Part shown: positions 18,340 to 21,300 of the stretch, one piece after another
Numbering within the stretch: the stretch's first letter is position 1
Layout of the letters: each line of letters begins with the position of its first letter
Origin: a virus
Taxonomy: Duplodnaviria > Heunggongvirae > Uroviricota > Caudoviricetes
DNA length: 55,937 nucleotides
Direction: 5' to 3' (one strand)
Virus record (IMG/VR): IMGVR_UViG_2872192773_000004
Position numbers: made by a program

Positions 18340-21300
18340 TGACCACTTCAAAGAGAAGAATTTTCGATGAAGCAAACAATCTTCCTCCGAACTAAGCAAC
18401 AACAGCAAGCCGCAATAAATGCCATCCTCTCAACTCCTCTCGATAAAGACAAGCCAGTCACCATCCGCATTACTGACTACAAGCGAAATCTTGACCAGAA
18501 CGCAAAATTTCACGCGATGCTGGCGGATATCGCTCGTCAGGTTCAATGGTGCGGCAAATGGTTAAAACCAGAACAATGGAAGGTTTTGTTGATCAGCGGT
18601 CATGCAGTGGCAACAAAACAGGAAGCTGATGTTTTGCCCGGCCTTGAAGGAGAATGCGTCAACATTCGCGAAAGCAGCGCGCAGATGAGCGTGAAGCGCA
18701 TGGCAAGTCTGATCGAGTACACAACAGCCTGGGCTATTGGTCAGGGTGTCAGATTTACCGACAGGAGGTATGAATGAGGCGACATCGACGAAGTTTCACC
18801 GACATCATCTGCGAAAACTGCAAATACCTTCCAACGAAACGCTCCAGAAATAAACGCAAGCCAATCCCAAAAGAATCTGACGTAAAAACCTTCAACTACA
18901 CGACTCACCTGTGGGATATCCGGTGGCTAAGACATCGTGCGAGGAAATGACTATTTATCCGGTGCGCCGCCAGAATGACGGCGCGGTGTGGTTAAACGAA
19001 GCGGATCTGGAGTTTTTTTCCAGTAGCGCGGGCGAATTTTTTTAGTGTGGCAAATGATGGGCCGCTGATACCTGATGCGAGATTACTTTCCATTCTGGTG
19101 ATCGCGGTCGCTTTTGTTCCCATTCGCTCGGCAACTTCAGCCTGAGTTAAGCCAGCTTCTTTGCGTGCTGCCAGCATTTCATCAAGCAGTGCGAATTCGT
19201 CAGCGATAGCGTCGTATTCTGCTTTAAAAGCCGGGTCTTCCATCCATTTGGCTGCCATTTCGTCGTGTGTCATGGTGGGGAGAGTGCGTTTACCAGTCAT
19301 GCTTAACCTCCTTCATTCTGGTTTCAGCTTTCTTGCGTTCGGCTGGCGGTGTTTTCTGCGCTTTCTTTACAAAACTATGCAGCATGATGATGCGTTTCCC
19401 TGTCAGAGTGCAGTAAAAAACACGCGCGATCCCATCGTTGCCTTTAATTCTGAGTTCGAAAAGCCCGTCACCAAAGGCGCTGGTGTGAGGTTCTCCGAGA
19501 TTGCTGCCGTATACCTTCATGCGTTCAACAAGATGCTGGTATCTGGCACGCATACTCAATGGAAGCTGATCGACCTCCAGTCGGACCTCTTCACTGTAGT
19601 ATTCGATAGTGTAGTTCATACAGCAAAACATAACAAAATCGTTATATCTGCACAATATATTGATTCTGCAATTTCGGGACGTTACACTGTCTCTGCACCT
19701 TATAAAGCGGGGGCCGGGATTGGCGTCCTGAAATTCAATATAGAGCATAACCGCGCTCATGCGGTTTTTTCGTGTCATGAGCATTGCTACGCCCAAATTA
19801 TGGTGGGGCGTGCAGGGACATCGCAAGATGCGCCGGGTTCTATGTTGACCGGTTACGCCAACCCTGTACGTCTCACCACCTCTGTGATTGGCGTCCCATG
19901 TGGTGAGTTCTTTGAATTCAACATAGGGGCTGTCACCATGACTACTCTCCCAACCCTCTCTCAACCTGAAATTGCCATCGTTGATGGTTAGGCTGTTACT
20001 TCATCCCTGGCTGTTGCCAACTTCTTCTCTAAACGTCATGACGATGTTCTGAAAAAGATCCGCATTTTGGATTGTTCTCCAGAGTTTTGTGCCCGCAATT
20101 TTGCGGAGACATCAATTTTGGTACGCCAGCCCAACGGCGGTACTCGCAAACTTCCCTGCTACCAAATTACCCGCGGCGGCTTCGCCTTCCTTGCTATGGG
20201 CTTCACTGGTAAACGTGCCGCCCGGTTCAAAGAGGCATACATCAATGCCTTTAACCAGATGGAGAGGAGCTTATCAGGAGCTGGTGCGGCTGACATGTCA
20301 TCTGTCGCACAAAACGCCAGAGGCGTATACCTGCATTTGCGTGAAATCCATCAAATCTGGACAAGCCAGCTTTACCCAATGCTTAAGGCCGTTGAATCTC
20401 CGCTGGCTGGCAAACTGTACGACCGTGTAGGTGATGCTGTTTTTGGTGCTGCACTTGTTGATTCCAGGCTGAATGGTTCTGACAAGGAGGTGCGCCCATG
20501 ATCCGCCACATCGTTAATTTCCTGTATCACCGATACAACCATTGCCCCCGTGTGGGGCAGTGGTTCACCACCAGCAACGGCTACGTTCTGCGGGTTTGCC
20601 TGGTCAGTACCGAAAGCCAGAAGGTTGTCTGCCAGGTTCAGGGACGTACTCATACCCTGAGTTATCCGCTGGTGGCGTTTCAGCCCGGAAAAATGTTTAA
20701 ACGCCTGGGAGGTGGCTATGCGTCCGTCTGATCTTCTGCTCGATTTTGGACATCCGGTTGCTTATTACCCTGGGCTCGTTAAATACATGGGAAGTCCGCA
20801 CGCTGTTATTTTCTTTGGTCAGATTTTTTACTGGCAGGATAAAGCACATGCAGCGGAAGGCGTACATAAAACGCGTGAAGAGATACAACACGAAACCGGA
20901 CTTACATTTGAACAACAGGCTGTAGCGCGTAAGCATCTTGTGTCCAGAGGCATTTTGGTTGAAACCAACAAGCGTCTTGAGCACAAAATGTTCTACCGTA
21001 TAGATTGTGAGCGCCTTAATGAAATTATCAATGAAAACAATCAGTTTTCCCGAAATGGGGAAACCCGTTTTCGGGAAACTGTAAAACCCAATTTCGCGGA
21101 GGAGGGAAAGCCTTCACCGCGGACACGGGAAACCCCTCGCCGCGGAGAAGGGAAAACCAATTTCGATCTTACAGAGAATACAACAGAGATTACTTCAGAG
21201 AATACTACAGAGAGTAAAAACACTATTGGCGCATCCGCTGACGCGTCTGCACCAGCGCGTTCTTCCCGACAGGAATATTCACCGGAATTTGAACAGGCCT

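Follow-up and report, generated by a model that had tools for sequence, protein, structure and literature searches.

Is a two-gene module that stands whole in a decaying prophage a working toxin-antitoxin (TA) system, and if so, how would the products of its two genes be kept in balance? The question is raised by a locus in the IMG/VR virus record IMGVR_UViG_2872192773_000004 (Caudoviricetes), a stretch of 55,937 nucleotides that was analyzed at its full length and is here called the window. The window holds a lambdoid prophage ridden with IS3-family insertion sequences, with at least seven copies in 56 kb, a picture like that of Shigella or enteroinvasive Escherichia coli. A first-pass annotation had noticed two overlapping genes on its minus strand, between positions 18992 and 19619, and had described them as a Gp49/HigB-like toxin and a helix-turn-helix (HTH) antitoxin, divergent from a Rha gene. 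We conclude that the pair is very probably an active, autoregulated type II TA operon of the Gp49/Tad-Ata family, HigBA-like, with the toxin gene first and an XRE-type HTH antitoxin gene second, as judged from sequence and by analogy with characterized relatives. The best explanation of its setting is a cassette that is transcribed independently, antisense to the early genes of the prophage.

The first gene (19619..19290, minus strand) encodes a 109-amino acid (aa) RelE-fold protein of the Gp49/Tad type (MNYTIEYY...KEVKHDW), for which ribosome-dependent mRNase activity is predicted by analogy. It aligns with positions 2-90 of the 90 in the Pfam Gp49 profile PF05973, with a score of 88.4 bits (gathering cut-off 23.9; E 3.2e-25), and matches PHROG 2523 (E 5e-45); the Gp49 signature seen on first reading is thus borne out, with exact coordinates. 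The label "HigB-like" stands for organization and fold, and not for family membership: the Pfam scan returned no match to the HigB families PF05015 and PF09907 at E <= 0.01, and the precise family is Gp49/Tad-Ata (COG4679). Among NCBIfam models, TIGR02683 (upstrm_HI1419) scored 19.8 bits, below its cut-off of 62.85, and the only other matches were to generic HTH models.

The 5' end of the toxin gene had been suspected of being over-extended in the supplied open reading frame (ORF), and this is correct. The mechanically called ORF (19964..19290) begins at a TTG and would encode 224 aa. In four related loci, three from E. coli or phage and one from Edwardsiella, the protein begins at the identical MNYTIEYY, and upstream of it the sequence diverges or contains a stop codon. 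The surplus 5' part of the 224-aa ORF is the antisense strand of the neighboring Ash/Rha pseudogene.

We find that the closest relatives of the toxin with known structure are RNases. Its top match among all PDB sequences is chain A of 6AF3, Streptococcus pneumoniae HigB (E 6.5e-5). An AF2 model built from 32 homologues (mean predicted local distance difference test, pLDDT, 91.6) has the order beta-alpha-alpha-beta4-alpha, with a first strand at residues 4-7, helices at 10-17 and 21-37, four strands, and a long C-terminal helix at 92-108. The best Foldseek matches of this model in the PDB are S. pneumoniae HigB (6af3/6af4) and Mycobacterium tuberculosis (Mtb) HigB1 (7awk/7nbu), with template-modelling (TM) scores of 0.71-0.77, followed by YafQ, RelE, and YoeB. 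Structures of Proteus vulgaris HigB come lower (ranks 34, 40, 47, and 48; TM ~0.50-0.53).

Five residues of the toxin, E55, R57, R66, F83, and K85, are invariant in the alignment of the 32 homologues, whose members are 62-95% identical to it. These appear to correspond to the active-site residues identified by mutagenesis in S. pneumoniae HigB (E66, R68, R73, F90, and K92; PMC7984235) and in Mtb HigB1 (E66, R68, R77, F93, and K95; PMC9098466). The mapping draws on the phmmer alignment and on motif context, with R66 equated to R73 by its strand position, outside the phmmer alignment.

The second gene (19300..18992, minus strand) encodes a 102-aa protein with two N-terminal helices followed, in its C-terminal part, by an HTH domain of the XRE type, which matches HTH_3 at 43.5 bits (cut-off 23; E 3.4e-11). 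The HTH reading frame described in the first-pass annotation is thus also sound, and the profile search that it had proposed as a check has placed the two proteins in the Gp49 family, of the RelE/ParE superfamily, and the XRE HTH_3 family. The top PDB sequence match of the antitoxin is 6AF3 chain B, S. pneumoniae HigA (E 1e-3). The best PDB matches of the two proteins are therefore the two chains of one complex, so that the pair, as a pair, is homologous to a solved TA complex. The antitoxin model is of moderate quality (pLDDT 78.5). Its predicted helices (12-20, 23-49, 53-60, 64-76, and 83-92) follow the order of alpha1-alpha5 of S. pneumoniae HigA. A fold search with this model returns XRE-type HTH proteins generally, with 6AF3 HigA matched over 97 columns (TM 0.54). 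By analogy with HigA, an N-terminal segment would bind the toxin and a C-terminal strand would serve in dimerization. The protein ends in ...LQIRFV, immediately past the HTH domain.

The stop codon of the toxin gene and the start codon of the antitoxin gene lie within an 11-nt overlap (ATGACTGGTAA; 19300..19290, minus strand), read from the sequence, and relatives are arranged alike. A strong Shine-Dalgarno sequence for the antitoxin, AAGGAGG (19307..19313, minus strand), stands 6 nt before its ATG, within the toxin coding sequence. No promoter for the antitoxin was found inside the toxin gene by the consensus scan; such an internal antitoxin promoter is known from mqsRA (PMC6918082). The toxin-first order, taken as typical of such modules on first reading, is indeed the rule for the Gp49 family (PMC5906591; PMC11980606, Table 1).

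The two genes are strictly linked across a wide range of hosts. We sampled 80 loci from 80 different species, with toxins 59-89% identical to that of the window, from Gamma- and Betaproteobacteria, several Nitrospirota metagenome-assembled genomes (MAGs), and one Desulfovibrionaceae MAG. An antitoxin homologue (42-91% identical) lies immediately 3' of the toxin gene in 79 of the 80, and the lone exception is truncated where its contig stops. Toxins identical to that of the window are recorded in at least 37 assembly blocks, and the antitoxin gene adjoins the toxin gene in every place shown. Those loci with a long enough contig have the order NinB-NinE-toxin-antitoxin-Ash/Rha remnant (or no Rha call)-replication genes. 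RefSeq names the near-identical E. coli copies "type II toxin-antitoxin system RelE/ParE family toxin" and "helix-turn-helix domain-containing protein". Carriage in E. coli is rare: 19 of 5,426 complete genomes have the module. The DNA search matched 1,907 E. coli genomes, nearly all of them through the 55-bp ninE end only.

Judged by substitution patterns, both genes are under strong purifying selection. The ratio of nonsynonymous to synonymous substitution rates (dN/dS) between the window and four relatives, over a dS span of 0.01 to 2.4, lies at 0.03-0.10 in the toxin gene and at 0-0.03 in the antitoxin gene. The pair is thus intact, as had been claimed.

The cassette occurs in three lambdoid contexts, and in each it runs antisense to the early genes beside it. 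In E. coli RMDEC465 (97.5% identical) it lies between ninE and a P22AR-type gene, in TUM9812 (~87%) it is flanked by DUF4222 and a Rha gene, and the Shigella Stx phages POCJ13 and 75/02 (91.8%) carry it in their early region. With these three contexts and a mosaic junction at its edge, it resembles a mobile, moron-like unit.

How might such a module regulate itself? Upstream of the toxin gene we predict a sigma-70 promoter (19627..19655, minus strand), with a -35 hexamer TTGTGC (19655..19650), a 17-nt spacer, and an extended -10 element TGtTATGTT (hexamer 19632..19627), which ends 7 nt before the toxin ATG (19619). A palindrome, ATAAC-N6-GTTAT (19630..19645, minus strand), is located within the promoter spacer and reaches into the -10 box; we predict it to be the antitoxin operator. 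Its core TAAC-N6-GTTA occurs once in the window, at 19631..19644. Four enterobacterial loci have in common TTGnnn-17 nt-TGtTATGTT-7 nt-ATG before the toxin, with ATAAC-N6-GTTAT over the spacer and the start of the -10 element.

The same layout recurs far beyond these loci. Within 60 nt upstream of the toxin start, TAAC-N6-GTTA is found in 70 of the 80 species loci, and in 62 of these 70 it ends 10 or 11 nt before the start codon; elsewhere in the 80 loci it occurs three times in the remaining 419 kb. When the window is added to the 70, a hexamer TAnnnT (most commonly TATTAT) starts in the last two bases of the palindrome in 70 of the 71 palindrome loci. The distance from this hexamer to the ATG or GTG is 6-7 nt in 63 of the 71, and a TTG stands upstream of it at 16-18 nt spacing in 56. 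From this footprint we infer a sigma-70 promoter in which the -10 box is merged with one operator, to which the HTH antitoxin dimer would bind.

The 7 nt between the -10 hexamer and the ATG lead us to predict a leaderless or nearly leaderless toxin mRNA, with the transcript starting at, or 1 nt before, the start codon. We regard this prediction as about evenly balanced. Sequence inspection found no Shine-Dalgarno sequence upstream of the toxin ATG. Two more distant relatives are built differently: gp49 of phage N15 (locus L094, 1100-1170) has an ordinary leader with AGGAGG, the homologue on an Acinetobacter pittii plasmid (63% identical; locus L093, 1440-1505) has a longer leader, and both lack the fixed spacing of operator, -10 box, and start codon. 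The layout is therefore specific to the 109-aa subfamily. In that subfamily, the toxin:antitoxin ratio may be set by an architecture that is conserved in at least 70 species (Beta- and Gammaproteobacteria, several Nitrospirota MAGs, and one Desulfovibrionaceae MAG) and combines three features, namely a leaderless toxin cistron, an operator (TAACA-N4-TGTTA) fused to the -10 box, and a strong antitoxin Shine-Dalgarno sequence; we put this forward tentatively, at a little under an even chance. Leaderless translation responds differently to stress, to initiation-factor levels, and to phage takeover, and the layout could for this reason also act as a trigger that tips the balance toward the toxin. 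We met no description of a leaderless or operator layout for the Gp49 family in the literature, in searches that were not aimed at the layout. Leaderless genes are rare in E. coli, where lambda cI and paaR2 are examples (PMC8630535).

The only match of the consensus promoter scan, TTGCGA-18-CATAAT (19826..19797), was rejected as a chance occurrence; it lies inside Ash/Rha, beyond the stretch over which the RMDEC465 and POCJ13 loci can be aligned with the window. At the other end of the module, the consensus scan found no canonical terminator after the antitoxin gene. A G+C-rich hairpin with a 9-bp stem (18964..18984, minus strand; fold -18.5 kcal/mol, z -3.2) follows the antitoxin stop codon directly, in the gap where ninE and the antitoxin gene converge. 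Neither strand has a U-tract beside the hairpin, and it is not a canonical intrinsic terminator; as folded, it could serve as a bidirectional transcript end or as a stabilizer.

By analogy with its relatives, the module would work as follows. Free toxin would enter the ribosomal A site, cut mRNA within codons, and halt translation, as A-site cleavage by relatives (PMC9098466) and the listing of Pfam Gp49 toxins as ribosome-dependent mRNA degraders (PMC11980606, Table 1) suggest. The N-terminal strand and helices of the antitoxin would clamp the N-terminal helices of the toxin and leave its active site uncovered, in a toxin-antitoxin2-toxin heterotetramer; relatives have such a clamp and heterotetramer, with the HTH helices on palindromic operator DNA (PMC7984235). 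The antitoxin dimer, with toxin as co-repressor, would bind ATAAC-N6-GTTAT over the -10 box and silence its own promoter, in the way that a related antitoxin represses its promoter with its toxin as co-repressor (PMC5906591). The leaderless toxin cistron would be poorly translated, and the antitoxin would be made from the strong AAGGAGG, giving an excess of antitoxin even though its gene comes second.

What the module does for its carrier is less clear than what it is. The likeliest biological effect is addiction, that is, stabilization of the DNA segment that carries the module, and we hold this at close to an even chance. Addiction would explain why the module is intact while its neighbors decay. 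Marks of decay seen in the window are a nonsense codon in the Rha gene, a cut DUF1367 gene, a split portal gene, and the many IS3-family copies. The view that many genes of this prophage are dead is partly confirmed by these cases.

The same module might instead have been selected for anti-phage defense or superinfection exclusion, an alternative that we consider rather unlikely as the principal role; a defense role is possible alongside addiction. When another phage infects, the labile antitoxin would run low or its synthesis would be blocked; the mRNase, once free, would abort the infection, and both the lysogen and its resident prophage would gain. In keeping with this, the cassette sits at three lambdoid positions, under its own promoter and antisense to the early operon, as would a moron that is expressed in lysogens, and HigB-type toxins of E. 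coli HigBAC confer phage immunity (bioRxiv 10.1101/2024.02.24.581848). For the module itself, however, a phage trigger is not known, and the characterized HigB system senses phage through a SecB-like chaperone, whereas here there is no third gene and the convergent ninE comes next. We rejected assignment to the tripartite TAC/HigBAC systems for this reason and because the antitoxin has no chaperone-addiction extension. A Gp49-like domain is also present in the PADLOC model NsnC, but the match spans only 51 residues (49-99, against positions 233-283 of a 293-position profile; E 4.9e-9) and reflects the shared domain only. PADLOC otherwise gave weak HTH matches and no defense-system assignment.

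Several points weigh against reading the pair as an active module with an operator-fused promoter and a role in addiction. The evidence at hand does not separate addiction from defense. The window's own hexamers, TTGTGC and TATGTT, are weak, and the consensus promoter scan did not call them; a recombination junction (19647-19657) coincides with the -35 region. At the predicted leaderless position, 28 of the 80 homologues have a GTG start. GTG is a poor leaderless start in E. coli, where leaderless translation needs AUG; either the hosts of these homologues accept GUG or the transcript begins elsewhere. We found no paper on this protein, on its 109-aa subfamily, or on the module in POCJ13, the 75/02 Stx phages, or Shigella. 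Furthermore, two members of the same Pfam family, Mtb HigB2 and HigB3, are non-toxic in M. smegmatis (PMC9098466).

This last finding would fit a conserved relic that is no longer toxic, or an HTH protein that acts mainly as a phage or prophage regulator with a harmless Gp49 cofactor, as would the decay of the host prophage and the PHROGs labels of the two families ("transcriptional regulator" for the antitoxin and "unknown function" for the toxin). We consider this improbable: every mapped catalytic residue is invariant, the low dN/dS of the toxin speaks against a relic, the strict two-gene linkage and the self-operator right upstream are what an autoregulated TA system needs, and an operator motif that is unique in the window gives no sign of further regulatory targets. 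That the toxin poisons gyrase in the manner of ParE, and is not an mRNase, is very improbable, for, although the RefSeq name "RelE/ParE family" fits both, the superfamily holds both activities (PMC11980606), and ParE2 structures appear low in the fold-search list (ranks 17 and 26), the nearest sequence and fold matches are all RNases, ParE reaches TM scores of only 0.44-0.48, the RNase catalytic set of E, R, R, F, and K is conserved, and the Pfam Gp49 toxins are listed as mRNA degraders in the table cited above.

An active, autoregulated TA operon thus remains the preferred interpretation, and it can be set beside five characterized systems. The first is gp49-gp48 of phage N15, whose gp49 is the namesake of the Pfam family. 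In PMC2701414 this pair is placed, with citation of Dziewit et al. 2007, in the Tad-Ata group (COG4679 and COG5606/XRE), TA systems with a stabilizing function. Its toxin is 45% identical to ours over 91 residues and its antitoxin 38% over 74; it is likewise toxin-first, with adjacent or overlapping genes, and is carried by a temperate phage. In addition to its AGGAGG leader, N15 gp49 differs in lacking the TAAC-N6-GTTA operator. N15 is a linear plasmid prophage, for which plasmid-style stabilization makes sense, whereas the module described here lies in an integrated, decaying lambdoid prophage.

S. pneumoniae HigBA (6AF3/6AF4) is the closest solved structure for both proteins by sequence, and for the toxin also by fold. 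As modeled, our proteins share with it the order of secondary-structure elements, including the alpha1-alpha2, HTH, and C-terminal strand of the antitoxin and the long C-terminal helix of the toxin, which is regarded as typical of Gp49-like toxins (PMC9098466). In contrast, identity is only ~18-22%, the system is chromosomal and not phage-borne, and the four palindromes in its promoter follow another consensus (PMC7984235). Mtb HigB1, the toxin of a TAC system (7AWK free; 7NBU on the ribosome with mRNA), has the same Pfam family and fold and provides the mechanistic model, with A-site binding and a cut after the second nucleotide of the codon (PMC9098466). Unlike the present module, the Mtb system has a SecB-like chaperone and a chaperone-addiction tail on its antitoxin, and its CCA codon preference is not transferable.

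HigBA of the Acinetobacter baumannii plasmid pAB120, compared here by its description, is another toxin-first module with a Gp49-domain toxin and an HTH antitoxin. Its toxin is toxic in E. coli and an RNase in vitro, HigA represses its own promoter with HigB as co-repressor, and the module stabilizes an unstable plasmid (PMC5906591). It differs in being plasmid-borne and in gene length (357 and 303 bp, against 330 and 309 bp here). The canonical HigBA systems of P. vulgaris Rts1 and E. coli K-12 (ygjNM) share the toxin-first order, a RelE-fold ribosome-dependent mRNase, and an XRE-HTH antitoxin that leaves the active site open; by contrast, our toxin has no profile match to their families and a weak fold match, and the canonical toxins lack the long C-terminal helix.

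The genes around the module complete the picture of the prophage. The region runs, in order, through a CI-like repressor, DUF977, a QueH-like gene, DUF1367, YbcO, IS600, NinB, and NinE to the TA pair on the opposite strand; beyond the pair follow the Rha-family gene, a DnaC-like gene, DnaB, Q, the lysis genes, the terminase, and the split portal gene. The QueH-like gene (13189-13875, plus strand; Pfam PF02677, E 2e-65) encodes a homologue of the QueH-type epoxyqueuosine reductase and stands in the early region beside DUF977 and a gene for a zinc-ribbon protein. The DUF1367 gene (14792-15205) breaks off at position 123 of the 198 in its profile, an IS3-family element (15246-16402) lies right downstream, and an IS600 copy (17102-18350) adjoins ninB. 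The lambda-type portal gene (33762-35355) is split into two overlapping ORFs. In the related prophage of E. coli VL7S7, a gene for a "ParE family toxin-like protein" lies beside IS600 (locus L004, 2317-2535); it is a second, unrelated toxin-type gene in the prophage lineage of the window.

The divergent neighbor is a regulator of the Ash-N/Rha family (19641..20501, plus strand). It does lie divergently, as first described, but it is longer than had been noted and is a pseudogene, with GTT and no start codon at 19641 and an in-frame TAG at 19989..19991. From 19657 on, the window has 99.6% identity to the VL7S7 prophage, in which the Ash-N/Rha gene is intact and encodes 286 aa (L004, 8938..9798), and the start of the gene in the window is placed at ~19641 because of this match. 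The TAG is codon 117, a Gln codon in the intact VL7S7 gene, and a profile search puts the Rha domain in the distal fragment. The start at ~19641 is only 21 nt from the toxin ATG; the 5' end of the gene overlaps the promoter and operator of the module, and the long ORFs at 19161-19991 (plus strand) and 19290-19964 (minus strand) are artifacts of this overlap. Up to 19647 the window resembles other module-bearing loci, and from 19657 it resembles the VL7S7 prophage; this switch in similarity points to a recombination junction just upstream of the toxin gene. The Rha neighbor is context and lies outside the TA module.

The pair is an uncharacterized new member of a known family, Gp49/Tad-Ata, and its value for genome annotation is small, since RefSeq already names near-identical copies. 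Locally, three points of annotation are corrected: where the toxin gene starts, the status of the Rha gene as a pseudogene, and the excessive length of the antisense ORFs. The locus is also a clean case of a TA cassette under selection amid a decaying, IS-ridden prophage, as one would expect if the element is addictive or defensive. From the upstream footprint, the operator and the leaderless translation of the toxin are predicted precisely and in a form that is cheap to test. If the prediction is true, the leaderless layout would explain how the toxin-first modules of this subfamily keep their antitoxin in excess.

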